Origin: a virus
Lineage: Duplodnaviria > Caudoviricetes
IMG/VR virus record: IMGVR_UViG_3300027741_000060
Span: 1-63,771 of that record
Length of the DNA: 63,771 bases
Reading direction: 5' to 3' (one strand)
In this document: one piece after another, positions 8,868 to 63,552 of the stretch
Layout: each line of letters starts with the position of its first letter
Position numbering within the stretch: position 1 is the stretch's first letter
Notes under the pieces: model-generated
Database searches by the model: none
The model's input: only the letters and a program-made list of their open reading frames with translations
Told to the model about the DNA's origin: nothing
Program-made: the position numbers and the translations under genes

Positions 8868-8869
8868 CG

Positions 8870-8971
8870 TCACTTGTAGATAAAAGGATCGCGCTTTCTC
8901 AATTCTTTGAGTTTTTTGCGATAGCGTATTTCTAACATAACGCGATTATAAAGATTTCTAATCCAGTTCAT
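8870..8971 (-). CDS. Small basic 33-aa protein (MNWIRNLYNRVMLEIRYRKKLKELRKRDPFIYK)
   Basis: Manually translated; exactly fills the gap between the two flanking genes, overlapping the upstream stop. Confidence 0.65.
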   Translation of the reverse strand: MNWIRNLYNRVMLEIRYRKKLKELRKRDPFIYK

Positions 8972-16612: not shown

Positions 16613-17744
16613 GACGATGTTGCTGGATAAATTGATGTAAACGGTCAGGAAATTCTTGCCGAACTTGCAGTCGCATTTCAGCCAAGTGCTGCTGATTGTA
16701 TTTACATATATTGTAGCACTCTTTCAAGAAACTCTTAAGATCTTGACGGCACAAATCATCCACTACTTGGGCAACACGTTCAATACGGTCTTGGCTGTTG
16801 GGTATGAGATCAAAACTTTCATCAATTACTGAATCAAATGTACGGAATCCCAGATTGCGCATGTCTCGGTAATAGCCTTCGTTGGCCACAGCAACCCAAG
16901 GATGACCCATGGCAATGGGTTTCCAGATTTTTTCTGTTCTGAAACTGTGGGGATAGTCAAACACAGTTTCAGTTACCACACTGAAATAGGTGTCAACATA
17001 GGGTGCAGCTTTGAGATAGATTTCGCCCCAGTCATTGTTGAACAAGGCGGGCTTGACATAGCTTTCGTTCACTGGCCGATCAACATTGGCACTGTAAGCA
17101 TCCACTTCATAAGCAGGATCTAAATACTTGACCGGTCTCACAGTCTTCATGAGATCTTGATCACGATGCATGAGTTTTAGCACACCTCGAGTATTGCTGT
17201 GACTGTCCAAAAAGCTCCAAAGACTTTGATCCAATATGCCCAAGAGATCAAACTGTTCAACTAGATATTTTCTACTGGGTCTCATGCGACCGTTGAGAAA
17301 TAGAAATTTATAAGGCTTGTCGGTCTTGGTAAAAATTGCCTGTGCTTGCTCAATGGCCTGAATGTTTTCCGTATAATCCAGGACCTTGGGTAGAAAGCTG
17401 TCAAACAGCATGTAAGGCCATTCTGGTGCCATCTCGCCGCCGCCGAGCAACAGTATTTTTTTATCAAGCACTAGTTGATCTATGCCATAAGAATAGCACT
17501 TGTTCCTCAGTGTTTCGGAGCCCTCGGCTGGATTGCTGTGTATTATTGTACATTGGCCGGATTCAGCCAACTCGCGTATGAGAGGTGCATTGGCCACCAT
17601 TTGTTGGCGGCCTATTAGGTAAACAGCACCTGGTACAATGTCATGCTTGGTAAGATCCCAAAAAACATCATCGGCCCAGGGCCGGAGCAAGTCATAGACT
17701 TCGCAAAAGGTATCTAATACCAGTTTGTAATTTTTACCCTGCAT
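16605..17744 (-). CDS. Putative glycosyltransferase-like protein (TEK-motif family)
   Basis: FLFLNGRMR; FSVVTETV...FRTEKIWKPI...GFRTFD...DESFD. Confidence 0.6.
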   Translation of the reverse strand: MQGKNYKLVLDTFCEVYDLLRPWADDVFWDLTKHDIVPGAVYLIGRQQMVANAPLIRELAESGQCTIIHSNPAEGSETLRNKCYSYGIDQLVLDKKILLLGGGEMAPEWPYMLFDSFLPKVLDYTENIQAIEQAQAIFTKTDKPYKFLFLNGRMRPSRKYLVEQFDLLGILDQSLWSFLDSHSNTRGVLKLMHRDQDLMKTVRPVKYLDPAYEVDAYSANVDRPVNESYVKPALFNNDWGEIYLKAAPYVDTYFSVVTETVFDYPHSFRTEKIWKPIAMGHPWVAVANEGYYRDMRNLGFRTFDSVIDESFDLIPNSQDRIERVAQVVDDLCRQDLKSFLKECYNICKYNQQHLAEMRLQVRQEFPDRLHQFIQQHRHD

Positions 17745-17748
17745 GATG

Positions 17749-40726: not shown

Positions 40727-43700
40727 TATATTACTCCACTACCAGGCGCTGTGCGAATGTTGGTAGATGTCAATGCATCAATCACTTGTATGTTGTTCAC
40801 TGTGGCAGAATTGACAAATATCTCATTGGGTGCCGAACGAATTTCATAGAGGTCACCAAAGCTCTTGCCCGAATCCAAGGGAACCAGTACCACTGAACTC
40901 ACCAAGGTGCCAATCTGACTGTGAAGATATGCAGCCAGTTCCGAGAAATAAAATGTGTTGCCAAAGTCCCAGTTTTCAATAGCAAAGTAAGCATCAATGT
41001 TGGCCACCACTGCAGTTCTCACTTCACTGTCGCTGGCTGTGGAATTTGCAGCCTTGATCACTTTGATAGTGGCTCTCAGAGCCGGCGCTGCTTTGGCGCC
41101 AAACAAGGGCTTGAACACCACAGAGTTCATGACCATGTTGTCAGAAATCATTTTGTAATCTTGCAGGCCGCTGTAGGCCGTGGTCAACTGATCAATGGTG
41201 GGACGCTCAGGCTCAGGTATGGTACCGGTGCTGTCTGTGATGTAGTTGCGATAGGCAGTGTAATATTCGGCTGTGACCAAGTACAAGTCAATAATATTGG
41301 AAGACCCAGGATCAATCCTGTTGGTGAGAGGACTGTTGTGACGATACTGAAAATAAAGATCTTGCCGACCAGTTTTCACTGCATAGGTTTTGTCTTCCAC
41401 TAGCAATCGACTGCCAGTGACAGTAACGGTCAACACATAAAACACTTGATCTTGATAGGCATAAAACACTTGATCTGGCAAGTACTCGTCCTTGACCAAG
41501 TCAATGTCATAGAGTGTGGCATACTCGGCATTGACACGACCTGATTCCACCAACAGGTAGCGTTCCAGGTTATCAAAGTCCACGGTGCGCTGAAAGAACA
41601 CCAGCTTGGTATTGGAGTCAACTGCAGGAGCAACAATTTCATCAAAAAAGTCAGGATTGTCAGGCACGCCGTCGTTGTCAGTGTCTTGATAGGACACAAC
41701 CACTTGATAGTCATCCACAAATCCATCGGGCTGTATGGGTTGGTCAATGATTCTCAGTGTGACATCACTGCTCAAGGGTCTGTTGCTGTCGGGCTGGCTG
41801 TTGACCTTGAGCACTCGCACAAAGTCTCGAATGGTGGTGCCAGTACGACTGTCAAAAATCTGCTGATCACCGTAGAAGAAAAATCTTGTTTGCAACACAC
41901 TACCAAAATAATAGTTGAGTCCACGACTGGTCACAGTGTAGTTGACTCCGTCGGTGATGAACTGAAAGAACCAACTGGCATCTTGACCAGTGCCTGTGGT
42001 GCTTTGAGCATTGGTCAAATCAAACGGTGCATCTACGGCCAAGTTGGTGGCAGTAATCAAGTACCAAGTGGCTGTGAGATTGTTGTAACCCAGACCAAAG
42101 TTTCTGTAGAGATTGATCTGTGCTGCCATACTCTGTCTCAAATCCGTAGGGAATTCAGTCACAAACACTGGAATCACTTGGGTACACACAGCACCCATGG
42201 GAATGTAATTGTTAAGTGTAATGGGACCAGTGCCATTATCAAAGTTACCGCGACCTTGATTGGTACCATCAATGTAAATGGCCTGGGGGCAGGCCCAGAC
42301 TATTAATTTTTCATCAGCCCGAGTGGGCACGCCGGCTTGCAATCGGTTGTTAACATCAAAGAAATAACCAGCAGGAGGTTCAAACTTGATCAAGGATCCC
42401 ACAGTAATGTATCTGGCATTGGTAGAAGAAAAAGCGCCCACTGCAATTGCATAACCGGTGCTGCCTTGAAAATATCCCGTGGTTTCATTGGCCAAGGTGG
42501 TGCTGAGATGCCAGGTCATGCTCTGCGCTGTGAGTGGTGGACGAGGATAGTTTGCGTAGTAAAACTGCTGTGCAGACGCTTGTGACAACAATGGTTGTGC
42601 TTGATTCACAATCACATTACCAATGTCATTGATAGTGAGCCAAGAAAACAAAAATGTTGGCAACACTGTTTGTTCATAGAGAGCACCGTCGCTGCTGAAT
42701 GTGTTGGTACTGGAATATTTGCCAGTGTTGTCCACAAGATCAAGATAACGACTGGTGCCAATAGACGCACGATTCAAGGCCTTGCTCTTGATAATGGAAT
42801 TGTAAGCTGTGAACGGGAAGTTGTTGTAGTCTTCGCCATTGACCATGCGATTCTGTGTGTAGTAGCGTGCAGGAGCTCGTTGCTTGATAGCATCCAGAGT
42901 TTCTCTGGGCAAAGCATTGCTGACCGGTTCAGTGATACCGCAAGTAAATGTCAGCGTTTCTAGCTGTCCGTTACGACTTATGTAACTGACGGGCAGCACC
43001 ACGCTCTGCATTTCTTCAGGATTGATAATGTACTGCAAGCCGTTGCTGGCACGAACATAGGCTCGGAAAAATCCCACTGGAATTTCAGAAAACACACCAT
43101 CACCAAAGTTCATGGAAATTTGATCGTTGGTACGACTGGTCACTGAAAATAACTTGCGCAGGTTAGGACTCAGCTGTTCCACTGCCGCTGTGTAAACACT
43201 TTCCACAAACTCCCACTCGCTGGCAATGTTTCCCACATTGTCTAATTGGTATAACCAACGATCTTGGTTGTTGATGCCTTCAATATTGATGTTGACTGAA
43301 CGATTTGAAATTCTTTCAGCCAGGTTGAAGTCTTGATTCTGCAGCACACCTTGCTTGAAGTAAAAGAAGTAACCAGTGTTGGCACTGGCAAAACCCAGTT
43401 GATCGTTGCGGAACAACACATTGAATTCGCCATTGGGACGGGGTGCGGGTTCGTAAACATAGTCACGGCCCGAAATGGTAGCATTCACAGCTTCAAATGG
43501 CATGTTGACGCCATTGATGGTGGCACTGTAGGGTATCACCGGCAAGTAACCCGACACCAAATTTATGGTATACTCATCAGTCCTCACACCTTGAATAGTG
43601 GTTCTGTTGCCGGGACGACCAATACGCTGTGTGTTGACTAGAGCAGAATTGAGAATCACAGAAAACTGCTCTTGCCAGTCAAAGTTGGTGGGATCAGCCC

Positions 43701-44130
43701 AGTTCACTGTGATGTTGGCCAGGTTGATGCCGTTGTAGTCAAACACATTTTCTGTGGTCTGCACTGAAAACACCTTGAGATAGCCCGAAGCTGCGGTGTT
43801 GCGCTTGGGTGTGTAGCTGACCAAGTTGGCCAACTTGATCACTGAGTCTCGGCGTTCGGCTGTGTCTAGGTAATTTTCGCGTGTGTTGAGATCGGTACGA
43901 AAGGCCAAGGCCTGGCCCATGAACGCCATCACATCCAACAGCGCAATGAATTCAGATGACTCAATGTAGTCGTTGAAGGTTTCGGGATAGTACAGGCGCA
44001 AGTAGTCCACAAAACTCTTGCGCAGAGTTTCAAAATCATAGCTTTGAAAATCAGCTTCTCTGTAGGTTTGATAGATTCTTTTCCAATCCTCTACCCCAAA
44101 GATTGCAGTTTGTCTAGTGGTTTTTGCCAT
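40726..44130 (-). CDS. gp6: Baseplate wedge subunit gp6-like
   Basis: SYDFETLR...FNDYIESSE, ENYLDTAERRDSV, ETLDAIKQRAP...QNRMVNGEDY; follows gp25. Confidence 0.85.
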   Translation of the reverse strand: MAKTTRQTAIFGVEDWKRIYQTYREADFQSYDFETLRKSFVDYLRLYYPETFNDYIESSEFIALLDVMAFMGQALAFRTDLNTRENYLDTAERRDSVIKLANLVSYTPKRNTAASGYLKVFSVQTTENVFDYNGINLANITVNWADPTNFDWQEQFSVILNSALVNTQRIGRPGNRTTIQGVRTDEYTINLVSGYLPVIPYSATINGVNMPFEAVNATISGRDYVYEPAPRPNGEFNVLFRNDQLGFASANTGYFFYFKQGVLQNQDFNLAERISNRSVNINIEGINNQDRWLYQLDNVGNIASEWEFVESVYTAAVEQLSPNLRKLFSVTSRTNDQISMNFGDGVFSEIPVGFFRAYVRASNGLQYIINPEEMQSVVLPVSYISRNGQLETLTFTCGITEPVSNALPRETLDAIKQRAPARYYTQNRMVNGEDYNNFPFTAYNSIIKSKALNRASIGTSRYLDLVDNTGKYSSTNTFSSDGALYEQTVLPTFLFSWLTINDIGNVIVNQAQPLLSQASAQQFYYANYPRPPLTAQSMTWHLSTTLANETTGYFQGSTGYAIAVGAFSSTNARYITVGSLIKFEPPAGYFFDVNNRLQAGVPTRADEKLIVWACPQAIYIDGTNQGRGNFDNGTGPITLNNYIPMGAVCTQVIPVFVTEFPTDLRQSMAAQINLYRNFGLGYNNLTATWYLITATNLAVDAPFDLTNAQSTTGTGQDASWFFQFITDGVNYTVTSRGLNYYFGSVLQTRFFFYGDQQIFDSRTGTTIRDFVRVLKVNSQPDSNRPLSSDVTLRIIDQPIQPDGFVDDYQVVVSYQDTDNDGVPDNPDFFDEIVAPAVDSNTKLVFFQRTVDFDNLERYLLVESGRVNAEYATLYDIDLVKDEYLPDQVFYAYQDQVFYVLTVTVTGSRLLVEDKTYAVKTGRQDLYFQYRHNSPLTNRIDPGSSNIIDLYLVTAEYYTAYRNYITDSTGTIPEPERPTIDQLTTAYSGLQDYKMISDNMVMNSVVFKPLFGAKAAPALRATIKVIKAANSTASDSEVRTAVVANIDAYFAIENWDFGNTFYFSELAAYLHSQIGTLVSSVVLVPLDSGKSFGDLYEIRSAPNEIFVNSATVNNIQVIDALTSTNIRTAPGSGVI

Positions 44131-51745: not shown

Positions 51746-53703
51746 TACCAAAATCCTCCACTTTTGAGCAATTTACCGTTGGCAAAATCTCGAACACTGA
51801 ACTGCTGACTCACTTGAGCACGACTTTGAATTGGCAACAGCGTGATATTGATATCCAACTTGGTGGGCACATAAGTGGGGGTGCCTAGGCCAAAGTTTGG
51901 TGTGGGCGGGGTAGATGGCAAAGCACCTTTGGTAAGGCCAGCATTTTTTAAGTTATTTAGAGCCCCTCCTAGCAACGCACCAAAAGCACCCACGCTGCTG
52001 TTGCCACCGGTTTGTCGGGGTCTGAGATTTTGCATGTCGGTTTGATTCATGTTGCTGCTGCCAGCGCGAATATAGTCCACATCACTGGGCAAGTTGTAGT
52101 CAAAGCTGGAGACCACACAGGGATTCTCGTTGAATTGATATTGGCCCAAGCCCGACAGATATACCAAGGGCGGGGGTGCGCCTCGTTGGGGGTCTTGACC
52201 ATAAAACATCTTGGTCACTGATCGAAAAAAGTGTATCACTGCCAGGAGATAGTTGGCTTCAGCAGTGCTTTGAGCTGTAAAAGTACATTTCAAATTCACA
52301 GCCTCCACATAGCTGTTTTGATAAAAATAGCCGCGATAGTTGCTGTGAGTGAGATCAGATTGGCCGTAGTTGGCACGGTAGCCCATGGAGATCTGTGGTG
52401 TATAAGGAAAAATCACACCATCTGAATCTGCCAAGGGTGCAAGAATTTCTCCTGGTGGGCGGGCCTGGTAGAGATATTCAGCTCTGGGTGCCAATCTCAG
52501 GCGTACTCGCCAGTCGCCATTGTTTTGTGTTTTTCTCTGGCCAGCAATGGTTTGTTGAGCTGCTGCTTGATTGGCCTGGGCCTGAGTCAATGCATTGCTT
52601 TCTGCCTCTGACGCACCACCATAGGATCCGTACAGATCTTGTTGTTCTTGTTCGGCTTGTGCAGCCAGTATGGCCTGTTGTTGATCATACAGACCTGCAT
52701 CTTCTTCAGAAGGCACATCACGAGGATACACTTCCAAGTCTGACGCAGCAATTTCCGCCTGAGTTATGCGTTCGCGTTCTTCCACGCTCACAGCCCGATT
52801 GGGATACACTGCTAGATCTTCTGCGGCAATTTGTTCTGCTGTGGGCGGTGGAGCCGGTGCCGGCTCTACACCATAGGCCGCAACTTCGGCATCAGCAGTG
52901 GCTCGTCTGTATTCTGCTGTGGAGGGCACAGGATCAGCAGCAGGTGTTACACCGCCTGTGGCCGCAGCACTTGTGCCCAGTTGAACTTCGGTTTGTTGAT
53001 TTACCTTGGTGTCTGCACCGCCAGGAGATTGAACTGGTGTATCCACTGAAGAAGTTGCGGTGGTAACTGTGGTTGTGGTTGTGGTGGTGTTGGGAACTGT
53101 GACTGTTGTGACACCACCACCAGATTCAAGAGATTTCTGTTGATTTCGTAACTGAGACTCTTCATCAACCAGTTTGCTTTGTTGAGCTATCCGTGCTAGA
53201 TTTTCTTCAGGAGTCAGGGGTGGCAAACCTTGCCGCTTGCGTGCAAAATTGCTGGGATTATCCCGGTTAAATTGATCAAGTTCAGCCTGTTTGGCATCCA
53301 GAGCTGGTTGCAGTGCCTGACTGGCAGGCGTGGGCTGTGATGGGTTAACAATGCGTGTGGTACTGCCACCACCGCTCACAGTCTCGGTACTGGTGGTGGT
53401 ATAGGTCATTGGTGTTTTGTTGCTGGGCGGGTTTCGAGCCTCAACATCATAGTTGACCGATTGCAGACCTTGATCAAATCTAGCAGACTCTTTTAATTCA
53501 GCAGCAGTGGGTGCTTGATAATCAACACCAGCAACTTTTCCACTGCCCACAACCAGAGCACCCATTTGACCATTCATGCCTATAGCATAGTTGCCAAGAT
53601 CAGCATCACCAATTCCGGCTTGAGTCAAGGCCGCATCCTCGCTGACACCTTGCTGCTTGAGTTGGTTGAATAATGCTGCTTTTTTTGCGTCGTAGCCGGC
53701 CAT
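51745..53703 (-). CDS. Tail tube initiator/baseplate cap-like protein (gp48/gp54-like C-terminal domain) with long low-complexity N-terminus
   Basis: C-terminal DWRVRL, GVIFPYTP, HSNY, FFRSVTKM, PPPLVYLSG; start ATG 53703 after AGGAAA RBS. Confidence 0.6.
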   Translation of the reverse strand: MAGYDAKKAALFNQLKQQGVSEDAALTQAGIGDADLGNYAIGMNGQMGALVVGSGKVAGVDYQAPTAAELKESARFDQGLQSVNYDVEARNPPSNKTPMTYTTTSTETVSGGGSTTRIVNPSQPTPASQALQPALDAKQAELDQFNRDNPSNFARKRQGLPPLTPEENLARIAQQSKLVDEESQLRNQQKSLESGGGVTTVTVPNTTTTTTTVTTATSSVDTPVQSPGGADTKVNQQTEVQLGTSAAATGGVTPAADPVPSTAEYRRATADAEVAAYGVEPAPAPPPTAEQIAAEDLAVYPNRAVSVEERERITQAEIAASDLEVYPRDVPSEEDAGLYDQQQAILAAQAEQEQQDLYGSYGGASEAESNALTQAQANQAAAQQTIAGQRKTQNNGDWRVRLRLAPRAEYLYQARPPGEILAPLADSDGVIFPYTPQISMGYRANYGQSDLTHSNYRGYFYQNSYVEAVNLKCTFTAQSTAEANYLLAVIHFFRSVTKMFYGQDPQRGAPPPLVYLSGLGQYQFNENPCVVSSFDYNLPSDVDYIRAGSSNMNQTDMQNLRPRQTGGNSSVGAFGALLGGALNNLKNAGLTKGALPSTPPTPNFGLGTPTYVPTKLDINITLLPIQSRAQVSQQFSVRDFANGKLLKSGGFW

Positions 53704-53722
53704 GAGTTTGTTTCCTATATTG

Positions 53723-53728
53723 TATTTA
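53723..53728 (-). promoter_or_regulatory. T4-type late promoter motif TAAATA heading the baseplate operon
   Basis: GGTAAATA upstream of the RBS and ATG 53703. Confidence 0.6.
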
Positions 53729-53762
53729 CCCAGAAAATAAACTGTGCACATAATGAATCAGG

Positions 53763-53795
53763 TTGACAACGCCCGATCATGTGTTATACTAAATA
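53763..53795 (+). promoter_or_regulatory. Sigma70 promoter (TTGACA-16 nt-TATACT, extended -10 TG) with overlapping TAAATA
   Basis: TTGACA 53763-53768, TGtTATACT 53782-53790, TAAATA 53790-53795, RBS AGGAGA near 53803. Confidence 0.7.
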
Positions 53796-53815
53796 TCTAC
53801 CCAGGAGAACCATCA

Positions 53816-54718
53816 GTGTCAATATCCTCCACGCCCGCGGCACCTCGCGTGAATTATCTCAACAATCGAGACATACTCAAAGAAATACATCTCAGCAAAA
53901 ACACCTACTGCACCTACCTTGATCCTGACCGTGATCATCAGTATGACATCATCCTGCCAGATGTGAGCAAAATCAACATTCGCACCGTGGCCGAAGCACG
54001 CAGAAATCGTGCTGACCGTATCAAACGCGAAACCGGTGTTGAACAAGATCCCAAGAAAATTCCCAACACTGATCTAGTGTTTCGGGTCACTTGTTGGGAT
54101 CACATTCCCATGGCCGCCAAAAAAGTGCCCAAAAACAAACCCAAAAAGCGCAAGATCGAAGACATCTTGGATTTTGATGACACAGTAGATGATCCCTTGG
54201 CCGATCTCATGCTGGAGGAACCCATACTGGATCCCACTCACATGCGAGTGAACTTCCCGCCCTTTTGGCACTACCGAATTGATGACAATCGAGAGCCGTA
54301 TCTAGTAGGCAAGAGTCACTGGCGCGGCGACTTGGCCACAGGAGAGTTTTCCAAAGATCATGGAACCATGACACGCAAGCTGGCCACCATGTTCATGAAG
54401 CTGTGCGAACGCTATGCCACTAGATCAAACTGGCGTGGCTACAGCTACAACGAAGAAATGCGTGGTCAAGCTCTCTTGCAACTCAGCCAAATTGGTCTGC
54501 AGTTTGATGAAAGCAAGAGTCAAAATCCCTTTGCCTACTACACAGCAGCCATCACCAACTCGTTTACTAGGATCTTGAACCTGGAAAAGAAAAATCAAAA
54601 CATTCGAGATGACATCCTGGAAATGAATGGTCTAGATCCTAGCTGGAGTAGACAGAATTCTGGGCGTGCCAGCATGGCCCAACTGTCCGGACCGGTCGTA
54701 TCTAGCCTGGATGAGTAG
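53816..54718 (+). CDS. gp55: Late-transcription sigma factor gp55-like
   Basis: NYLNNRD, NWRGYSYNEEM, FDESKSQNPFAYYT; upstream of gp47/gp46 as in T4-like phages; GTG start after RBS. Confidence 0.85.
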   Translation: MSISSTPAAPRVNYLNNRDILKEIHLSKNTYCTYLDPDRDHQYDIILPDVSKINIRTVAEARRNRADRIKRETGVEQDPKKIPNTDLVFRVTCWDHIPMAAKKVPKNKPKKRKIEDILDFDDTVDDPLADLMLEEPILDPTHMRVNFPPFWHYRIDDNREPYLVGKSHWRGDLATGEFSKDHGTMTRKLATMFMKLCERYATRSNWRGYSYNEEMRGQALLQLSQIGLQFDESKSQNPFAYYTAAITNSFTRILNLEKKNQNIRDDILEMNGLDPSWSRQNSGRASMAQLSGPVVSSLDE

Positions 54719-54730
54719 TATACTAGGGAA

Positions 54731-55747
54731 ATGAGTAACCTATTTAAAAAAGCTGCAGTTTTCACGGACATCCATTTCGGTCTCAAGTCAAACAGCACTT
54801 TGCACAACGAAGACTGCCTAAATTTTGTGAAATGGGCTACTGCTAAAGCTCGTGCAGAAGGTTGTGAAACCTGTTTGTTTCTTGGCGACTGGCACAATTC
54901 TCGAGCCAGTATAAATATTGTCACGCTGAACTACAGCCTGCGAGCCTTGGAGCACTTAAATGACAACTTTGATCACGTGTATTTTATTCCTGGCAATCAC
55001 GATCTATACTATCGTGACAAGAGAGACATTCAGAGCGTGGAATGGGCGCGCCATCTCCCACGTGTCACTGTATGCAATGACTGGTTTGAGTGCGACGATG
55101 TTGTTATTGCTCCTTGGCTTGTGGGTGATGATCACAAAAGGATCCCTCGGCTGAAAGGTCGCTACATGTTCGGGCACTTTGAATTGCCCGGATATCTAAT
55201 GAATGCCATGGTGGCCATGCCGGATCATGGTGATATACAAAGAGAACACTTTGGCAACTTTGAGCATGTGTTTACCGGTCACTTTCACAAGCGACAAACA
55301 CAAAAGAACATCACCTACATTGGCAACTGCTTTCCGCACAACTATGCCGATGCCGGCGACGATGAACGCGGTATGATGATCTTGGAATGGGGGCAAGCAC
55401 CCAAATTCCATGCTTGGCCTGACCAACCCAGATATCGTGTGTTGGGCTTGGCCAATTTAATTGATCGTGCTCCTGAGTTGTTGGCTGCAAACATGCATGT
55501 GCGTGTGCAGCTGGACATTGAAATTTCATACGAAGAAGCCAACTTCATTCGAGAGACCTATGTGCGAGACTATGGGCTAAGAGAAATGAGCCTAATACCC
55601 AACAAGAACTCATCTGTGGACACCGACATGGCACCAGGCGAAATCCGCTTTGAATCGGTAGACCAGATTGTGACAGATCAGCTGACCAATATCGAATCAG
55701 AATTCTACGACAACCGACTTTTGTTGCAAATTTATCAGACCTTATAG
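54731..55747 (+). CDS. gp47: Recombination endonuclease subunit gp47 (Mre11/SbcD)
   Basis: Metallophosphoesterase motifs DIH, GD, GNHD, GH, GHFH. Confidence 0.9.
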   Translation: MSNLFKKAAVFTDIHFGLKSNSTLHNEDCLNFVKWATAKARAEGCETCLFLGDWHNSRASINIVTLNYSLRALEHLNDNFDHVYFIPGNHDLYYRDKRDIQSVEWARHLPRVTVCNDWFECDDVVIAPWLVGDDHKRIPRLKGRYMFGHFELPGYLMNAMVAMPDHGDIQREHFGNFEHVFTGHFHKRQTQKNITYIGNCFPHNYADAGDDERGMMILEWGQAPKFHAWPDQPRYRVLGLANLIDRAPELLAANMHVRVQLDIEISYEEANFIRETYVRDYGLREMSLIPNKNSSVDTDMAPGEIRFESVDQIVTDQLTNIESEFYDNRLLLQIYQTL

Positions 55748-55867
55748 TTTTTGATAATTACTGATCAAATTACAAAATTACTTTGGCTTCAAACCCAAAT
55801 TTGAATCTTGTAATCCACGTTTTACCAATTTTTGGTTGTTTTAAATTAACTTTAGAAAGTAAAACAC

Positions 55868-56812
55868 ATGAAAAAACAAATTTTCACAGCTCTACTGAGC
55901 ATGTGCATTGCAGTATCATCTGCTGTGGCATTTCCCAACAAACCTGTAAGAATCATTGTTTCGCTGCCAGTGGGGTCAGGGCCTGATGTACAGGTTCGAC
56001 GAGCAGCCGAAGTGCTGACAGAAAAATGGAATCAACCGGTTGTGATTGACAATCGTCCAGGGGCGTCAGGATTGATTGCCATGGATGCGTTGGTCAAAGA
56101 GGCCGCCGACGGTCATACCATAGGACTTTTTCACACCGGCGATATTGTGGCTTTTCCAATTTTGTACAATCGTCCGGAACTCATAAACAATGTTGAACCA
56201 TTGATGCCATTTTTCAAAGCAGACATGATGTTGTTTACGTCAAGCCAGATCAAAAACATAGCTGAACTTCGACAGGAAGTTCAAAAGAACCCCATGTATG
56301 GCTCTTGGGGAACAGGATCCATTGGTCATGTGGTTGGTGCAGAATTTGGCAGCACAATGTCTTCTTCGGCTACTCATGTTCCATACAAAGAATACACTGC
56401 CTGGTATATTGATTCAGCAAATCTTGTGTTGAGTTATGGATTTAGTGCCCCGGGTTCTTCCAATGCCATGTATCGTGCAGGAAAAATACGCTACTTGGCC
56501 ATTGCAGCAGCTCGACGAGATCCAAAATTCCCGGATGTTCCGACCATACGCGAGTTGACTGGTGAAAACATTGTATCCCAAAGTTGGTTGGCATTTTATA
56601 TAAACCAAGGCGTCAATGACACTGTCAAACGGCGTTTGGAAAACGACTTACGGGAAGCAATTGCCACCCCCAAGATACAAAACATGATTACCGACAATTA
56701 TTACATACCGTTGAACAATTTGTCTTTGGCCGAATTCCAAAAACAAGTGGCCAAAGACAAAGAAAATTACGCCACTGTGTTGAACAAATACAAAATCAAT
56801 CTTAAACAATGA
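55868..56812 (+). CDS. Bug/TctC tripartite tricarboxylate transporter substrate-binding protein
   Basis: Signal peptide then FPNKPVRIIV...GSGPD, VVIDNRPGASG, ADGHT, HVPYK, PDVPT. Confidence 0.88.
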   Translation: MKKQIFTALLSMCIAVSSAVAFPNKPVRIIVSLPVGSGPDVQVRRAAEVLTEKWNQPVVIDNRPGASGLIAMDALVKEAADGHTIGLFHTGDIVAFPILYNRPELINNVEPLMPFFKADMMLFTSSQIKNIAELRQEVQKNPMYGSWGTGSIGHVVGAEFGSTMSSSATHVPYKEYTAWYIDSANLVLSYGFSAPGSSNAMYRAGKIRYLAIAAARRDPKFPDVPTIRELTGENIVSQSWLAFYINQGVNDTVKRRLENDLREAIATPKIQNMITDNYYIPLNNLSLAEFQKQVAKDKENYATVLNKYKINLKQ

Positions 56813-58080
56813 GTCGTTGGCCAGAATCTAACACCAGCAGAATCCCTTACTGGGTATATCGTGATCAAACTGTATATCAACAAGAACTAGAAAAAATCTT
56901 CTACGGCGATCATTGGATCTATGTAGGATTAGAATGTGAAATACCCAACACAGGTGATTTTAAAACCAGTTGGGTTGGGGAAAGGGAAGTGATTGTTGCT
57001 AGACACAACAACAGCATACAGGTGTTTGAAAATCGATGCGCACACCGAGGTGTCAGATTCTGCCAAAAAAAGCATGGTAATGCAACCAGTTTGGTATGCC
57101 CTTATCATCAGTGGAGATACAATCTCAGTGGAGATTTAATTGGAGTACCATTTGAGCGTGGTGTTGCCAAAGGAGATCGCAAATTTGAAGGAATGCCTGC
57201 TGATTTTGACAAAAAACAAAACGGAACAGTCAAGCTGAATGTGGCTTGTTTGCATGGAGTCATTTTTGCTTCATTTAGTCACACAGTTGAACCCATTGAA
57301 CAATATCTAGGTCCCACAATATTGCCCTGGTTCGAGCGCACATTCAAAAATAGAAAGTTAAAAATATTAGGGTACAATCGTCACAAAATTCCGGGTAACT
57401 GGAAGCTGATGATGGAAAACATCAAAGATCCATACCATGCTGGATTACTGCACACCTGGTTTGTGACTTTTGGTTTATTTCGAGCCGATCAATCCAGCAG
57501 TAGAATCGTGATTGACAGCACGGGTCGACACGCAGTCATGCTCAATCGACGAAACCAAGCCACAAACAACGAAGTCACTCAAGGAATCGACAGTTACAAA
57601 CATCAAATGACCCTGCATGATCCAAGAATGCTTGACATTGTTGAAGAATCTTGGTGGTCCGTTCCAGATCCAGATAACCCCGGTACTTTTATCAATCCCA
57701 CAACCTGTATGCAAACACTATTTCCCAGTGTGGTCATACATCAACAAATAAACTCATTGAGCACACGTCAAATTGTGCCCAGAGGCAATGATTGTTTTGA
57801 ATTTAATTGGACTCATTTTGGGTTCGAAGACGACAGTGAAGAAATGACATTGCGTAGATTAAGACAGGCCAATCTTTATGGACCAGCAGGATTTGTCAGT
57901 GGTGAGGATAGCGAAGTACTTGAACTGTGTCAGCAAGGGTTTGATCAATGGCAAGATCAGGGTCAACAGTTGGTACAGATGGCTGGCAAGGATTTGGGCG
58001 AAACAACCGATCACCCAGTGACCGAAACACTTTTGCGCGGAATGTATCGATACTGGAAAAAGGTAATGGGCTATGAATAA
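56809..58080 (+). CDS. nagG: Rieske aromatic ring-hydroxylating oxygenase large subunit, salicylate 5-hydroxylase-like
   Basis: Rieske NRCAHRG...CPYHQW; mononuclear iron ENIKDPYHAGLLH and distal GEDSE; RLRQANLYGPAGFVS. Confidence 0.8.
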   Translation: MSRWPESNTSRIPYWVYRDQTVYQQELEKIFYGDHWIYVGLECEIPNTGDFKTSWVGEREVIVARHNNSIQVFENRCAHRGVRFCQKKHGNATSLVCPYHQWRYNLSGDLIGVPFERGVAKGDRKFEGMPADFDKKQNGTVKLNVACLHGVIFASFSHTVEPIEQYLGPTILPWFERTFKNRKLKILGYNRHKIPGNWKLMMENIKDPYHAGLLHTWFVTFGLFRADQSSSRIVIDSTGRHAVMLNRRNQATNNEVTQGIDSYKHQMTLHDPRMLDIVEESWWSVPDPDNPGTFINPTTCMQTLFPSVVIHQQINSLSTRQIVPRGNDCFEFNWTHFGFEDDSEEMTLRRLRQANLYGPAGFVSGEDSEVLELCQQGFDQWQDQGQQLVQMAGKDLGETTDHPVTETLLRGMYRYWKKVMGYE

Positions 58081-58546
58081 AAATGAATGGCAATCAGCTG
58101 TTGACAATATCAATTCTGACTATGGGTTTGCAGTTGACCAACACAACTGGCAAGATTGGTTAGATTTATTCAGCAACGATGCACTGTATCACATTCAGAG
58201 TCGAGAAAATTTTGATAGAAAGTTGCCACTGAGTTTGCTTCGACTTGACAGCAAAAATATGATGAAAGATCGAATCTACGGAATCACCGACACAATTTTT
58301 CATCAACCTTACTATACACGACACATAATTGGGAGAGCAAAAATAACACAATTCAATGATTGCCAGTGTGAATGTGTAAGCAACTATGTGGTAATCCGAA
58401 CCAAACACCAGCAAACCAGTGAAATATTCAATGCAGGTTATTATCTAGATACCATGAAACTGTTGGATGGCGAAATAAAAATCAAAAGTAGAATTTGTGT
58501 ATATGATACTGAGATGGTGCCAAATTCGTTGATTTATCCTGTGTAA
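58073..58546 (+). CDS. nagH: Ring-hydroxylating oxygenase small (beta) subunit
   Basis: WLDLF, RENFDRKLPL, DRIYG...YYTRH, C-terminal PNSLIYPV; coupled to the alpha subunit. Confidence 0.8.
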   Translation: MNKNEWQSAVDNINSDYGFAVDQHNWQDWLDLFSNDALYHIQSRENFDRKLPLSLLRLDSKNMMKDRIYGITDTIFHQPYYTRHIIGRAKITQFNDCQCECVSNYVVIRTKHQQTSEIFNAGYYLDTMKLLDGEIKIKSRICVYDTEMVPNSLIYPV

Positions 58547-58563
58547 TTTGTTAAAATCAGTTG

Positions 58564-60330
58564 ATGATTAACATTAAAACCCTCACTGTTAGAAATTTCA
58601 TGAGTGTGGGTGCAGCCACACAGGCCATCAACTTTGACCGCAGTGACCTTACCTTGGTGTTGGGTGAGAATCTTGACCTAGGTGGCGATGGCTCACGCAA
58701 CGGCACCGGCAAGACCACAATCATCAATGCACTCAGTTATGCCTTGTATGGTCAAGCACTGAGCAACATCCGAAAAGACAATCTAGTAAACAAAACCAAC
58801 GGCAAAAACATGTTGGTGAGCCTGGACTTCTCTGTAGGCGATCAGGTGTACAGAATTGAGCGCGGTCGCAAGCCCAATGTGTTGAAATTCTATGTCAACG
58901 ATGAGCAACAGCTGGCACAGGACGAAGCACAGGGCGACTCACGAGAAACCCAAACAGCTATAGAACGTGTGTTGAACATGAGTCATGACATGTTTCAGCA
59001 CATTGTGGCTCTTAACACATATACCTTGCCATTCTTGAGCTTGAAGGCCAATGAGCAACGAACCATTATTGAACAGTTGTTGGGAATCACACAGTTGAGC
59101 GAACGAGCCGATGCCGTGAAAGAACTCAATAGACAAACGAAGGATGCCATCACCCAAGAAGAACATCGCACAAGAGCAGTTCAAGAAGCCAATCGTCGTA
59201 TTGAAGAACAGATTGAAAGTCTGCGTAAACGACAAACCTTGTGGTTGAGAAAACAAGCCGAGGATGTGGCTCAGTTGACTCAGGCTGTGACTGATCTTGA
59301 ACACATTGACATTGATCATGAAATTCAAGCACATAGAGATCTTGAAACTTTCCACACTGTGAAAAAAGCCCGAGACGAAGCCGAACGATGGATTCGCAGC
59401 ATTGACAGTGATGATGCAAAATTAGAAAAAACTCGAGCCAAGTTACAAAAAGAAATTACCGATCTTGACAATCATGTGTGCTATGCGTGTGGACAGAATC
59501 TACATGATCACAAGCAAGACGAAATTAGAGCAGCCAAACAGGAAGCCTTGCAAGAAACTGCGCTACAATTGTTGGCTAACTCTAGTCAGCGATTTGAACA
59601 TCAAGACCGGTTGTCACAACTGGGAGAAGCTGTGCCAGCACCACAAGTTTTCTATGACACCCTGGAACAGGCCCTGAATCATCGCAACAGCGTGGACACA
59701 TTGCGTAAAGATCTGGCTCAACGACAGACAGAAACTGATGTGTATGCTGAACAGATCTCAGACATGCAGAGTCAGGCTCTGCAAGAAGTCTCCTATGACA
59801 CTCTCAATCAGTTGACTCGACTACAGGATCATCAAGAATTTTTACTCAAGTTACTGACCAGCAAGGATAGCTTTGTTCGCAAAAAGATCATTGATCAAAA
59901 TTTGAGTTACCTCAATGCCAGACTCACTCACTATCTAGATCGCATGGGCTTGCCACACACTGTAGTATTTCAAAACGATCTCACAGTCAGCATCGAAGAA
60001 CTGGGTCGTGAACTGGACTTTGACAACCTGAGCCGTGGTGAGCGCAACCGACTGATTCTCTCCATGAGCTGGGCCTTCCGTGATGTGTTTGAAAGTCTTT
60101 ATCAACCCATCAACATCATGTTCATCGACGAAATGATCGATTCTGGTCTGGACACCGCAGGTGTAGAGAATGCCCTAGGCTTGCTCAAGCACATGAGTCG
60201 CGAGAGAAACAAGAGTGTGTGGTTGGTGAGTCACAGGGATGAGTTGACTAATCGAGTGGAAAACATATTGCGAGTGGTCAAAGAAGGTGGATTCACTTCG
60301 TATGATTCTGGCACTGAAGTCATGCAATAA
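58564..60330 (+). CDS. gp46: Recombination ATPase subunit gp46 (Rad50/SbcC)
   Basis: Walker A NGTGKTT, coiled coil with CYAC zinc hook, LSRGE signature, FIDE Walker B, SH loop. Confidence 0.92.
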   Translation: MINIKTLTVRNFMSVGAATQAINFDRSDLTLVLGENLDLGGDGSRNGTGKTTIINALSYALYGQALSNIRKDNLVNKTNGKNMLVSLDFSVGDQVYRIERGRKPNVLKFYVNDEQQLAQDEAQGDSRETQTAIERVLNMSHDMFQHIVALNTYTLPFLSLKANEQRTIIEQLLGITQLSERADAVKELNRQTKDAITQEEHRTRAVQEANRRIEEQIESLRKRQTLWLRKQAEDVAQLTQAVTDLEHIDIDHEIQAHRDLETFHTVKKARDEAERWIRSIDSDDAKLEKTRAKLQKEITDLDNHVCYACGQNLHDHKQDEIRAAKQEALQETALQLLANSSQRFEHQDRLSQLGEAVPAPQVFYDTLEQALNHRNSVDTLRKDLAQRQTETDVYAEQISDMQSQALQEVSYDTLNQLTRLQDHQEFLLKLLTSKDSFVRKKIIDQNLSYLNARLTHYLDRMGLPHTVVFQNDLTVSIEELGRELDFDNLSRGERNRLILSMSWAFRDVFESLYQPINIMFIDEMIDSGLDTAGVENALGLLKHMSRERNKSVWLVSHRDELTNRVENILRVVKEGGFTSYDSGTEVMQ

Positions 60331-60347
60331 CTTTATGAGATACAATT

Positions 60348-61460
60348 TTGTTTGATTACAACGCTATCAACGAGTATCAACTAGAAATTACTACTTATTG
60401 TAATGCCGCATGTCCGCAATGCCCAAGAAATCTTGGAGGGCATGGCACAAATCCCTTGATGCCACTTACACATCTGCCCAGGGCGGTTATTGACTCATCA
60501 TTCCTTATTGATCTATGTAAGAGTCTTCGACAGATATTTTTTTGTGGAAGCTACGGTGATCCAATCATGCATCCTGACTTCTTGGACATACTTAGAGATT
60601 TTCGACGCAAATCACCAACACTGTGGCTATACATGCACACCAACGGTGGCGCACATGATCCGGAATACTGGAGAGAAATTGCAAAAATCATGAACGGATA
60701 TGGCCAGATAGATTTCGGAATTGACGGACTAGAAGATACTTTACATTTGTATCGTCGCAATGTAAAATACAGCAAAGCCATTGCCAATGCTCGGGCATTT
60801 ATACAAGCTGGTGGTCGTGCACAGTGGAATTTCATTGTTTTTCATCACAATGAACATCAAGTTAAACAAGTACAACAACTAGGCAAAGAACTAGGATTTT
60901 TCAATGTATTGATCAGAAAAACTGGAAGATTTTTCAATCACAGAACCATTGAAGAAATGACTCGCTGGCCTGTAGGGAATAACTATGTATTAGAGCCGCC
61001 TAACAATCCTGACTATCGAAATCAAAGCATGATGTTTCTTCCAGACTTAAAGAAACAATACAACAATATCAAAGATTATTTTAACTCAACAGAAATCAAA
61101 TGTGATGCCATGATTGGACACAAGGTAGCCATCAATGCCGAAGGATTAGTTTTGCCTTGCAACTTTTTCAATCATAATTTGTACGACCTTAGATTTTACG
61201 AGCCAGGAGTAATGCCAGAAGCTAATGAGCTCAGCTCAGTTGATGGAAAAAATCAAGTAAGATCTTTTTTAGAATCACATAACTTAGAAAAGTTAAACAT
61301 CAAAAATTACAGCATCGAAAATATTTTTAAAAATCCCATGTGGCATGATCTAGTGGATAGCTGGAACAAAACATTGTACAACGGTCGACTGTTCGAGTGT
61401 GCAATGACCTGTGGGTCAAAAATTACCAAGGTATGGGATCAAGGAGGAAGCAAAAGATGA
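60348..61460 (+). CDS. Radical SAM protein with C-terminal SPASM/Twitch-like Cys residues
   Basis: CNAACPQC, CGSYGDP, HTNG, C-terminal KC...PC...CAMTC. Confidence 0.88.
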   Translation: MFDYNAINEYQLEITTYCNAACPQCPRNLGGHGTNPLMPLTHLPRAVIDSSFLIDLCKSLRQIFFCGSYGDPIMHPDFLDILRDFRRKSPTLWLYMHTNGGAHDPEYWREIAKIMNGYGQIDFGIDGLEDTLHLYRRNVKYSKAIANARAFIQAGGRAQWNFIVFHHNEHQVKQVQQLGKELGFFNVLIRKTGRFFNHRTIEEMTRWPVGNNYVLEPPNNPDYRNQSMMFLPDLKKQYNNIKDYFNSTEIKCDAMIGHKVAINAEGLVLPCNFFNHNLYDLRFYEPGVMPEANELSSVDGKNQVRSFLESHNLEKLNIKNYSIENIFKNPMWHDLVDSWNKTLYNGRLFECAMTCGSKITKVWDQGGSKR

Positions 61461-62041
61461 AATTTTTAATCACTGGCGGTAATCGAGGACTAGGACTACA
61501 TCTAGTAGAACATTTTCATGGCGATTCTATCAGTCGAAACAATGGATGGGATATTACTCAAGATGTAGAGAAAATTGCCAAACATAGTTTAGATTACGAT
61601 GTATTTGTAAACAATGCCTTCGACGGGCCACCTCATGAATCCTGGGCAAATTTTGCACAAACCAATCTGTACCTTGCGGTGTACGATGCTTGGAAATCTG
61701 CAGACAAATCAGGATACATTTTTAACATTGGATCATCCGGCAGCAAGCATATCGTGAGTCCCGAGCCTAGATTTGAAACTTATCGAGTATCTAAGGCAGC
61801 CTTGGAACATGCCAGCAAACAAGGCACGCAAGCATTTAAACAAAATACGGTAAAATTTCAAACCAGTTTATTGACTCTGGATCGTCTTGACACTCCGCTA
61901 AGCCAGAGCAGATCGTCCTGGACTGGAAACGGAATCAATTTGCAAGATATTAGCAATTTCATAAAGTATGCAATGTCTGTTGGCAAAAACACTGTGATCG
62001 AAGAAACAACTTTTTATTGCAATTTCAATTACAATTCATAA
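61457..62041 (+). CDS. Short-chain dehydrogenase/reductase
   Basis: TGGNRGLG, VNNA, NIGS, YRVSK; ATGA coupling to the radical SAM gene. Confidence 0.85.
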   Translation: MKFLITGGNRGLGLHLVEHFHGDSISRNNGWDITQDVEKIAKHSLDYDVFVNNAFDGPPHESWANFAQTNLYLAVYDAWKSADKSGYIFNIGSSGSKHIVSPEPRFETYRVSKAALEHASKQGTQAFKQNTVKFQTSLLTLDRLDTPLSQSRSSWTGNGINLQDISNFIKYAMSVGKNTVIEETTFYCNFNYNS

Positions 62042-62071
62042 TTATGTTACATATTTCTTTAAGATATCAAC

Positions 62072-62557
62072 ATGACATGGCTATACAACAATCAACTGGT
62101 AGAAAATCTACCCCAAGATTGTGTGGGTTTTGTGTATTTGATAACTAATACCGTCAACGGCAGAAAATACATAGGCAAAAAACTAGCAAAATTCTCAAAA
62201 ACAACTTATCAAACAGTCAAGCAAAAAAACGGCACCAAGAAACGCAAAAAGATACGCAGCAAAATTGATTCAGACTGGAGAGACTACTGGGGTTCCAGCC
62301 CGGAACTTTCAAAAGATATACAGGCACTAGGCATCGAAAACTTCTCAAGACAAATACTACACTATTGCACCAGCAAGGCAGCCTGCTCGTACATTGAAGC
62401 ACGAGAACAATTTGATCGACGAGTGTTGGAATCTGAGGACTACTACAATGGTCACATACAGGTTCGAGTACACGGCTCTCATGTATTAAACAAAACACTG
62501 GCACTGACAGGCAGCGATCACGACACTGTGATCAGCGACATGGCTGATCCCCATTGA
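62072..62557 (+). CDS. GIY-YIG endonuclease (T4 Seg/EndoII-like)
   Basis: GFVYLITN...KYIGKK, YWGSS, EAREQ, YYNG. Confidence 0.85.
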   Translation: MTWLYNNQLVENLPQDCVGFVYLITNTVNGRKYIGKKLAKFSKTTYQTVKQKNGTKKRKKIRSKIDSDWRDYWGSSPELSKDIQALGIENFSRQILHYCTSKAACSYIEAREQFDRRVLESEDYYNGHIQVRVHGSHVLNKTLALTGSDHDTVISDMADPH

Positions 62558-62935
62558 GGAACGGTGCAATACCCGGTCCAGACTTGGGCGTCAAAGGCAA
62601 TTGCTAACTTAAGGCAACAAATGGTTGGGGCTCTGTGAAACAGATACAACCCCTGCTCATAGGATTTGGGTCTATTCCGGATCACTAGGGTTCCGTTGAT
62701 ATGTGAAGCTTGAGTAGGGGGTACCGGTCAACCGCCTCCGCGCAGGAAACTGCAATCTCATTAGAATAGATGACTGATGCTACTCGGATAATGGCGCCGT
62801 CAATTCACCGTGCATACGGTGAATTATGACCAAATTAATCTGGATAATAGCTTGAATCGCTTCGCTCTTGATACAATTCAAAAAAGAAAAATATTGATGA
62901 GCGAGAGCGAATCAATAGAACTTCGTAGAAGTTCT
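62515..62935 (+). ncRNA. Candidate large structured non-coding RNA/element (family not recognised; strand inferred)
   Basis: ORF-free region with many stems: GCAG-GAAA-CTGC, AATTCACCGT-GCAT-ACGGTGAATT, CCCCTGCTCA/TGAGTAGGGG, crossing TCTATTC/GAATAGA. Confidence 0.55.
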
Positions 62936-63552
62936 CACAGTGTAGATGATAATCGTTTAAGACTTTGATACTCTTTCTGAGCTAAACTATTTTTAAGATT
63001 ATGTTCTATTGATTTTGGTTTACCTTTGTGTCTAGCACTTATCTTTGCTCTTGATTCGGGAGAAAGTAATTCAGCAACTTTTCTTCCTTTATTCCAAGGT
63101 GTGTGCCCTTTCATCTTTTCAGTTGATTGTTTAGGTTTTCCTTTTGTACTAGCACTTTGTTTAGCAACAGATTCGGCAGATCTTGGCCCTGTTTGCTTAC
63201 CTTTGTTCCACGGAACTCTACCTGTTAGTGCCTTGCTAACCCTGAGTTTAGTTGCCGACGATAAATTCAATGATCCGTCACCACCGTCTGTTTTATTGTT
63301 TAAAATACCTGTGCTGATATCTTTGCGGCCATACCAACGAATCAATCTGCGTTCTATAGCCAATGCACCTAATTCTGTTAAGTTAGCCTCGACAATAATA
63401 ATCTTAGATTTGTCTTTTGGTATTTGAAAATGGTGTTTACCCCAGGCTCGACTTTCTTGTCCTTTACCTATATAATAAGGTGTATTATCTGACTTGCGTA
63501 GATAAGCATAGACATAAAAGCCTATAGGTGGATTTGTTTTTGTAAATATCAT
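62935..63552 (-). CDS. GIY-YIG homing endonuclease with NUMOD3-like repeats
   Basis: FYVYAY...[16 protein letters not shown], two PWNKG(K/R) repeats; AT-rich. Confidence 0.85.

Follow-up and report, generated by a model that had tools for sequence, protein, structure and literature searches.

The window analysed here is the whole of IMG/VR record IMGVR_UViG_3300027741_000060, a linear stretch of 63,771 bases, and the element of interest within it is a group of three genes (the "cargo") which encode a Bug/TctC-family solute-binding protein and the alpha and beta subunits of a NagG-family Rieske oxygenase, and which lie in a slot between the phage genes gp47 and gp46. The CheckV completeness of the window is approximately 18%, which implies a genome of roughly 350 kb, and the window represents part of an uncultivated freshwater jumbo phage that carries T4-like replication and late-transcription genes. 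The locus contains the following features.

53744..54718, + strand: gp55-like late sigma factor gene (phrog_12791, E 3.1e-76), upstream of gp47 in most related loci
54731..55747, + strand: gp47/SbcD-like nuclease gene, the left border of the slot (PF00149; phrog_100, E 1.6e-61)
55748..55867, + strand: AT-rich spacer of 120 nt, GC 0.25, the site of an AMP-binding enzyme gene (contigs L003 and L004) or of a 2.1-kb insert (contig L002) in relatives
55868..56812, + strand: Bug/TctC-family periplasmic solute-binding protein gene (PF03401, E 7e-35)
56809..58080, + strand: NagG-family Rieske non-heme iron oxygenase alpha subunit gene (PF00355, E 1.2e-16; PF00848, E 2.1e-17)
58073..58546, + strand: NagH-like oxygenase beta subunit gene, NTF2 fold (PF00866, E 4.6e-15)
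58561..60330, + strand: gp46/SbcC-like ATPase gene, the right border of the slot (phrog_77, E 3.8e-104), with its likely start at the ATG at 58564

The original prediction, which was made from the letters of the DNA, described three intact and coupled genes between gp47 and gp46 with phage core genes on both sides, and this description is borne out: the open reading frames (ORFs) are those that it gave, the TGA of the Bug gene and the ATG of the alpha gene overlap as ATGA, the ATG of the beta gene overlaps the alpha TAA by 8 nt, and a gap of 15-18 nt separates the beta stop from the gp46 start. The gp55-like sigma factor, gp47 and gp46 frame the trio, and baseplate and virion genes lie upstream of it on the opposite strand. 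The further statement that the cargo is AT-richer is numerically correct (GC 0.418, compared to 0.461 for the whole window), but the difference is mild and unspecific, and the composition is a weak sign of foreign origin because the neighbouring radical-SAM and short-chain dehydrogenase/reductase (SDR) genes downstream have even lower GC (0.386 and 0.398, respectively). The GC content at third codon positions (GC3) of bacterial homologues, at 0.8-0.95, is far from the cargo GC of 0.42.

The first protein of the trio contains the Bug/TctC domain (121.3 bits for PF03401 against a cut-off of 27), and its matches among solved structures in the PDB are Bug27 (89 bits) and the terephthalate-binding protein (82 bits). 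In an alignment of 37 phage-type Bug proteins, the residues G36, G38, P39, G150 and S151 of the Bug loop motifs GSGPD and GS.GH are invariant, and D40 and H154 are present in at least 90% of the sequences. The Bug identity given by the original prediction therefore stands, and the signal peptide that it reported is likewise plausible by a heuristic: the N-terminus (MKKQIFTALLSMCIAVSSAVA/FP...) is signal-peptide-like, with a charge and hydrophobic pattern of the Sec type, and the heuristic, which looks for K or R ahead of a hydrophobic 10-mer, is positive for the window protein and for 30 of the 37 phage-type Bugs, several of the other 7 being apparently truncated at the N-terminus. The phage Bug set as a whole comprises about 50 protein clusters, 36-76% identical, from contigs of up to 370 kb, one of which is named "uncultured Caudovirales phage" at NCBI; the first Bugs from named bacteria, in Albidiferax, Polaromonas, Rhodoferax, Ramlibacter and Variovorax, appear at 36% identity or less.

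The alpha subunit scores above the cut-offs of both PF00355 and PF00848, as a Rieske alpha subunit does, and its metal sites are complete, as the original prediction had noted: the Rieske ligands C77, H79, C97 and H100, the bridging D207, and the iron ligands H210, H215 and D367 are all present. Its best match among solved structures is NagG (7c8z_A, 552 bits, E 1e-164), followed by the terephthalate dioxygenase TphA2 (302 bits), while the best PDB match of the beta subunit is NagH (7c8z_B, 157 bits; PF00866 56.4 bits against a cut-off of 27). The adjacent gene for this NTF2-fold beta subunit is that of an alpha3beta3-type oxygenase.

The trio is not confined to the window. A search of IMG/VR with the alpha sequence, of the kind that the original prediction had proposed, recovered three further viral contigs in which the Bug-alpha-beta block likewise separates gp47 from gp46: L002, a contig of 8.7 kb whose alpha is 99% identical to that of the window; L003, a contig of 337,119 b with direct terminal repeats that is rated 100% complete, with an alpha 70% identical; and L004, a contig of 84.5 kb with an alpha 64% identical. 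The sequencing datasets listed as containing it are labelled as freshwater metagenomes, and no RNA dataset is among them. Continuity across the junctions, which the original prediction had also asked to see confirmed, was found in Logan contigs: a 3,126-nt contig from run X1, which is possibly the source sample, covers 55517-58642 with 0 differences and bridges both junctions, and a 3,035-nt contig from run X4, which belongs to another study, extends over 55767-58626 with 84 differences and bridges the right junction. Two cargo-skipping read joints in X1 (55549>58585 and 55232>59065) have sides of fewer than 30 letters at 90% likeness; they probably represent relatives or repeats and were set aside.

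The cargo genes are under strong purifying selection, with dN/dS values between the window and L002 of 0.05 for Bug, 0.02 for alpha and 0.12 for beta, compared to 0.06 for gp46. The divergence of alpha among the three lineages (65-70%) is comparable to that of gp46 and gp47 (66-82%), and dS between the window and L002 is 0.11-0.14 for the cargo and 0.57 for gp46. The left junction varies between strains: the X4 contig diverges from the window upstream of 55767, and L002 has a 2.1-kb insert (725-2809), containing three ORFs without a Pfam match, between gp47 and Bug. Within this insert, positions 2614-2686 duplicate the 5' end of gp46 over 73 nt at 85% identity, a possible recombination footprint. 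In the GenBank phage collection, the matches of alpha consist of contigs named "Acinetobacter phage MD-2021a", which we suspect to be bacterial contigs, and one "Bacteriophage sp." record, none of them exceeding 38% identity over half of the protein, and Bug matches a single record at 25%. As cellular-type genes that have phage genes on both sides and are kept in related phages, the members of the trio are phage auxiliary metabolic genes; the trio is real, selected, and more systematic than the original prediction supposed.

This systematic character becomes apparent when the slot itself is compared across relatives. The original prediction treated gp47 and gp46 as a normally adjacent pair that had been split once, and this part of it must be abandoned, since the slot between them is always occupied in this lineage. 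The alignment of the 37 phage-type Bugs led to 29 related viral contigs, and in 19 of these Bug adjoins gp46 and/or gp47. A gene for an AMP-binding enzyme lies directly beside Bug (upstream, downstream or both) in 21 of the 29, 20 of them identified by tblastn and 1 by Pfam, while the Rieske pair is found in just 3 of the 29 and in the window, always with one Bug subtype. The gene order in L003 and L004 is AMP-binding enzyme, Bug, alpha, beta; the window and L002 are without the AMP-binding enzyme gene. In Phosso, a cultured distant relative, two small ORFs lie between gp47 and gp46, and in two further loci (L107 and L108) the phage-type Bug lies away from gp46 and gp47, among genes for a methyltransferase, a glycosyltransferase and an NAD-dependent epimerase/dehydratase. 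An arrangement of Bug, AMP-binding enzyme and DNA polymerase B genes occurs in another viral contig, of 320 kb, and in G002, the complete 337-kb relative, where this AMP-binding gene is a further one.

Trees of the cassette genes were built with one locus per distinct sequence set, leaving out L091 and L092 (which are the same contigs as L004 and L003) and L095, L096, L103 and L113 (apparent copies of L094, L102 and L104). In the Bug tree, the four Rieske-linked Bugs form one clade with a support of 99 in the Shimodaira-Hasegawa-like approximate likelihood ratio test (SH-aLRT), so that the Rieske pair requires 1 change, a value as low as which was reached in 0 of 500 shuffles. In the gp46 tree, the Rieske carriers are scattered, L003 being sister to the Rieske-less L106 with a support of 100, and forcing the carriers together costs 247 log-likelihood units (approximately unbiased test, p-AU 0.0004). 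The groups of the AMP-binding enzyme tree mirror those of the Bug tree. Bug and enzyme are thus congruent in their trees whereas gp46 departs from both, which we read as the result of an exchange of whole Bug-plus-enzyme cassettes between phage backbones at the gp47-gp46 slot, in which the Rieske pair would be one variant of a swappable cassette. The linkage of Bug subtype to enzyme type speaks for a single compound on which both receptor and enzyme act. A gene for a SegE-like homing endonuclease, located just downstream in most loci, may drive the exchange.

The relationships of the oxygenase were examined in a quick IQ-TREE search of alpha with SH-aLRT support only, comprising 52 rows: 4 phage sequences, 10 of 120 listed homologues, 20 of 80 chromosomal loci, 5 NagG-type plasmid genes and 1 plasmid outgroup drawn from 84 plasmid records, and 12 outgroup rows from 150 protein representatives, many of them fragments, of which the best listed is 48% identical to alpha. 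In this tree a NagG clade (support 97) is sister to the union (96) of a phage clade of 12 sequences (99) and a chromosomal clade of 22 (96). The phage enzyme is thus a member of the NagGH family, but the tree modifies the label "salicylate-5-hydroxylase-like" of the original prediction, in that the nearest relatives of the phage alpha belong to a chromosomal clade of the Comamonadaceae rather than to the NagG clade. Alpha is 56% identical to an annotated nagG in a nagAa-nagG-nagH-nagAb operon on a Sphingobium plasmid, and the phage subunits fall below the equivalog cut-offs of the NCBIfam models AndAc and AndAd (374.9 against 750 for alpha, 110 against 230 for beta).

The comparison of the substrate pocket covers two residues, NagG R323 and M257, whose roles are taken from the portion of PMC9060491 available to us and which were aligned by hand, from the alpha/NagG alignment, to R320 and M244 of the phage protein. 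According to the same portion of that source, R323 of NagG is the arginine of the carboxylate salt bridge and is conserved across the cluster of NagG and the terephthalate dioxygenase TPADO. Both residues and the eight metal-site residues are kept in all 12 phage-clade, all 22 chromosomal-clade and all 5 NagG-clade sequences. The phage enzyme resembles NagG in sequence and key residues and differs from it in clade placement and in having no linked redox partners; it is a putative aryl-carboxylate oxygenase of the NagGH family for which salicylate is the leading candidate substrate.

The sister clade was characterised in a collection of species genomes, in which 455 of 468 pattern-matched stretches are relatives of alpha; the locus counts that follow cover the best 80 of these 455. 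Almost all of the 80 are from Comamonadaceae (Ramlibacter, Polaromonas, Hydrogenophaga, Caenimonas, Limnohabitans and others), apart from three metagenome-assembled genomes with odd labels. These three, L016 (Kapabacteria), L030 (Asaia bogorensis) and L040 (Sphingobacterium thalpophilum), have loci that are Comamonadaceae-like in genes and identity and are probably mis-binned or mislabelled. The chromosomal alpha/beta pair, 58-63% identical to the phage alpha, lies in a conserved mutL-dedA...amiC neighbourhood (AmiC in 65, DedA in 60 and MutL in 52 of the 80 loci), its members are 77-91% identical across genera, and a Bug gene is directly upstream of it in a few loci only. Homologues of ferredoxin, gentisate dioxygenase, hydrolase and isomerase were found within 8 kb in none of the 80 loci, the sole reductase-like match being a weak one at one locus (L044). 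The chromosomal NagGH-like pair is highly conserved and apparently unstudied.

If the cassette is functional, then it must borrow components from the host, because neither redox partners nor TctAB are encoded by the phage. The original prediction had remarked that the window contains no ferredoxin, reductase or TctAB, and the searches agree with it: TctA, TctB, Fer2, a second Rieske protein, Pyr_redox_2 and NAD_binding_1 were found neither in the window nor in the complete relative G002, and tblastn queries with ferredoxins and reductases, NagAa and NagAb among them, matched none of the viral loci. Across the viral records checked, G002 among them, none of 4 contains TctA and none of 3 contains TctB, so that there is no complete TctABC system in these records and the phage Bug is an orphan receptor. 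Orphan Bugs that share a few TctAB units are the norm in Burkholderiales. The host of the phage is likely to be a member of the Comamonadaceae, since that family is the source of both the clade sister to alpha and the Bugs of named bacteria that come nearest to the phage Bug (36% or less). Five genomes that contain the sister oxygenase were used as stand-ins for the host. TctA is present in all five, as is a bicupin of the gentisate 1,2-dioxygenase family (33-37% identical).

The complete relative G002 provides a wider view of the phage repertoire. It contains five TctC-family ORFs of 308-334 aa at five places, a DctP-type binding protein of a tripartite ATP-independent periplasmic (TRAP) transporter (184 bits), an isocitrate lyase (355 bits) and a nitronate-monooxygenase-like protein; DctP is found in 2 of 5 viral records checked. 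TRAP systems and the tripartite tricarboxylate transporter (TTT) systems to which Bug receptors belong both import carboxylates. The theme of this repertoire is organic-acid assimilation, and the combination of Bugs, a TRAP receptor and isocitrate lyase in one complete relative tilts the interpretation towards carbon supply over signal removal.

The reading that we favour, with moderate confidence, is that the trio is a plug-in cassette for the uptake and hydroxylation of an aryl carboxylate, which depends on host parts and provides carbon and energy during infection. The stop/start overlaps suggest that Bug, alpha and beta would be co-translated from one message, after which the Bug protein, to judge from its signal-like N-terminus, would be exported via Sec to the periplasm, where it may bind a salicylate-type aromatic carboxylate and hand it to the TctAB of the host. 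The alpha3beta3 oxygenase would then hydroxylate the acid using electrons from a host ferredoxin and reductase, a step that is drawn from the intact metal sites, the carboxylate-binding arginine and the strong purifying selection. The probable purpose would be to supply the infection with additional carbon and energy, drawn from dissolved carboxylic acids, aromatic ones included. Salicylate as the substrate, partners of the NagAa/NagAb type, and carbon supply or signal removal as the purpose are all inferences. A broader proposal, which we put forward tentatively and with less than even confidence, is that the lineage keeps a recombination-swapped library in which each orphan TTT receptor co-evolves with its cognate enzyme (a phage-specific adenylating enzyme or a NagGH-like oxygenase), the receptor retargeting host TctAB to a new carboxylate and the enzyme trapping the imported acid, and which together with additional orphan Bugs, TRAP receptors and isocitrate lyase would rewire the use of dissolved organic acids by infected Comamonadaceae.

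Several observations weigh against the favoured reading in whole or in part. Among Bugs whose ligand is known, none is more than about 30% identical to the phage Bug. The phage alpha lies outside the clade of the operon-defined, characterised NagG, its sister clade being itself uncharacterised, and fixed differences separate the phage and chromosomal sequences from NagG beside the pocket residues (243 V/A, 247 R/T, 249 N/G and 323 V/Q); because these differences are next to two known pocket residues, the enzyme may use a substrate other than salicylate. Only 1 of the 5 stand-in genomes clearly has a small Rieske ferredoxin of the NagAb type, and the electron donor of both orphan clades is for this reason the main gap in the mechanism. 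The trees come from quick searches with SH-aLRT support only. The cassette of the window may be a reduced form, because the AMP-binding gene is absent from it, and the weak resemblance of that AMP-binding enzyme to adenylation domains of nonribosomal peptide synthetases (NRPS) and to EntE is as compatible with biosynthesis as with catabolism.

The last of these points leads to an alternative that we regard as unlikely, namely that the cassette serves biosynthesis or tailoring: an aryl acid, either imported or produced by the host, would be hydroxylated (for example to dihydroxybenzoate) and, in the relatives, adenylated for attachment rather than burnt for carbon. The attachment, at a similarly low likelihood, might be to a siderophore-like compound or to a product of the numerous radical-SAM enzymes of the phage, or it might serve to modify the surface or the virion. 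The phage AMP-binding family comprises 89 clusters, all metagenomic and none from a named bacterium, and the Atlas clusters nearest to the enzyme are 100% viral. The usual adenylation motifs are kept in the consensus of the family alignment, as read by eye, and the 508-515-aa ORF of the relatives, which was considered as a candidate TctA, was dropped in that role once it proved to be this AMP-binding enzyme. The enzyme sequence has 0 matches to solved structures in the PDB at E 0.001 or better, and the hits of the family profile are restricted to the aryl-acid ligase EntE (26 bits, E 3e-5) and to adenylation domains of the NRPS type, with PheA at 34 bits (E 1e-7), the best NCBIfam match of the enzyme being an amino-acid adenylation domain. 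A biosynthetic role would also accord with the finding of no gentisate-pathway gene in any phage locus and with the richness of the window and its relatives in genes for radical-SAM proteins, carbamoyltransferase, SDR, aminotransferase, glycosyltransferase and hexapeptide transferase. The adenylation-domain matches are weak, however, neither a carrier protein nor a condensation partner was observed beside the cassette, and the cassette of the window is under strong purifying selection yet has no AMP-binding gene; the isocitrate lyase and the TRAP binding protein of the complete relative point instead to carbon assimilation.

A cassette that inactivates a salicylate-like inhibitor or regulator, and so keeps the infected cell productive, is improbable. 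In the accessible part of PMC13215587, NagGH-type systems are described as raising salicylate tolerance and lowering salicylate signalling in root bacteria, and the carboxylate-binding arginine and M257 of NagG are kept in the phage enzyme. The sequencing datasets that contain it are freshwater metagenomes, however, the slot contains an adenylating enzyme more often than an oxygenase, and the sister bacterial clade is found among housekeeping genes and not among stress or efflux genes. To our knowledge, moreover, no salicylate-type signal is known in freshwater.

It is highly improbable that the Bug protein is not a transport receptor at all, but that it acts, for example, as a periplasmic decoy, feeds a ligand sensor, or blocks superinfection or the TTT uptake of the host, with a merely positional linkage to the oxygenase. 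Such a role would accord with the absence of TctAB from every phage record examined and with the five divergent Bug paralogs, some of them beside unrelated genes, in one phage genome, but it does not account for the co-segregation of Bug subtype with enzyme type across discordant backbones or for the conservation of the Bug-family loop motifs, and an orphan state is in any case normal for Bugs in Burkholderiales. The possibility of an assembly chimera or of bacterial contamination inside a viral contig, which might be raised because the cargo has bacterial homologues and no PHROG family, is excluded, given that the same arrangement recurs in three further viral contigs from other samples, one of them a complete genome, that the right junction is bridged by contigs of two runs from different studies and both junctions by one of these, that the cargo GC is unlike the GC3 of the bacterial homologues, and that divergence in the cargo matches that in the neighbouring phage genes.

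The genes that follow gp46 in the window, identified by domain searches and, for the two endonuclease genes, by domain and PHROG searches, are these.

60348-61460, + strand: radical-SAM gene after gp46
61397-62041, + strand: SDR-like gene
62072-62557, + strand: SegE-type GIY-YIG endonuclease gene, just downstream of the slot in most related loci
62935-63552, - strand: second homing-endonuclease-like gene

A radical-SAM gene lies 3' of gp46 in many, but not all, related loci, and L002 is without both the radical-SAM and the SDR gene. Either of the two endonuclease genes could promote local gene exchange. Consensus scans for promoters and terminators over 53500-62200 gave counts at background (22 compared to 18.6 expected, and 11 compared to 7.6), with no terminator-like site on the + strand of that interval, and were not used; nor was the motif TATAAATA, which we take to be the T4 late-promoter motif and which occurs 2 times in the window (1.2 expected) and 0 times in the spacer. 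Elsewhere in the window, a run of at least six radical-SAM paralogues at 6146-19161 on the - strand looks like a large biosynthetic or modification cluster; four of the paralogues (6146-7393, 10109-11413, 12355-13653 and 13572-15278) have a SPASM domain N-terminal of the radical-SAM core, and a NodU/CmcH-type carbamoyltransferase gene lies within the run at 7317-8873. A single ORF of 4,667 aa (26723-40726, - strand) adjoins the baseplate wedge gene at 40726-44130.

If the favoured reading is correct, then giant freshwater phages alter which organic acids, including aromatics of plant and humic origin, are taken up by their Burkholderiales hosts, and they do so by means of single receptor genes that can exploit the many-receptors, few-channels design of TTT systems. 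The cassettes would also constitute natural pairs of binding protein and enzyme for the assignment of ligands within the very large and mostly unassigned Bug family, and the work additionally draws attention to the conserved, uncharacterised NagGH-like pair in Comamonadaceae chromosomes. In our literature search, neither phage-borne Bug/TctC receptors nor Bug-plus-enzyme cassettes were found to be described, and no Rieske oxygenase of a jumbo phage turned up; viral hydrocarbon-oxygenase genes are listed in metagenome surveys, according to the parts of the reviews that were available.

Among known systems, the closest to the phage oxygenase is NagGH of Ralstonia sp. U2 (PDB 7C8Z), likewise a two-subunit alpha/beta Rieske monooxygenase and the best structure match for both subunits. 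The phage pair differs from it in its position outside the NagG clade, in being phage-encoded and in the substitutions beside the pocket residues, and, unlike NagGH operons, it has no linked NagAa reductase, NagAb ferredoxin or naphthalene and gentisate genes. The chromosomal pair of the Comamonadaceae shares this absence of linked ferredoxin, reductase and gentisate genes, but it sits among housekeeping genes and has Bug upstream in few loci only. A plasmid operon of Acidovorax sp. DW039 (L090) combines a NagG-clade alpha/beta pair with a Bug in one operon, alongside genes for a ferredoxin, a reductase, a fumarylacetoacetate-hydrolase-family protein and a cupin and the gene maiA, and therefore shows that Bug receptors serve a salicylate/gentisate-type pathway in Comamonadaceae, which is a bacterial precedent for the pairing; it differs in that it possesses its own ferredoxin, reductase, cupin dioxygenase, hydrolase and isomerase, and in that its Bug is 29% identical to the phage Bug.

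The terephthalate system, consisting of the receptor TphC/TBP and the dioxygenase TPADO (TphA2A3), is similar in that it joins a TTT receptor for an aryl carboxylate to an alpha/beta Rieske oxygenase (82 bits for TBP and 302 bits for TphA2). The gene tphC lies in the tph operon. The system is bacterial, unlike the phage cassette, and has a dedicated reductase; the accessible portion of PMC9060491 places TPADO in the same sequence cluster as NagG and reports that the TPADO residues for the second carboxylate are unique to TPADO. The nearest phage parallel is that of the cyanophage PstS, for which the part of bioRxiv 10.1101/2021.07.20.453049 that we consulted describes a phage that supplies the periplasmic phosphate-binding protein and relies on host PstCAB. 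In both cases a receptor-only phage gene relies on a membrane transporter of the host, but PstS belongs to an ATP-binding cassette (ABC) system for phosphate, whereas the phage Bug belongs to the TTT systems for carboxylates, is present in multiple copies in a relative, has a cytoplasmic enzyme as its partner, and appears to be exchanged as part of a cassette.

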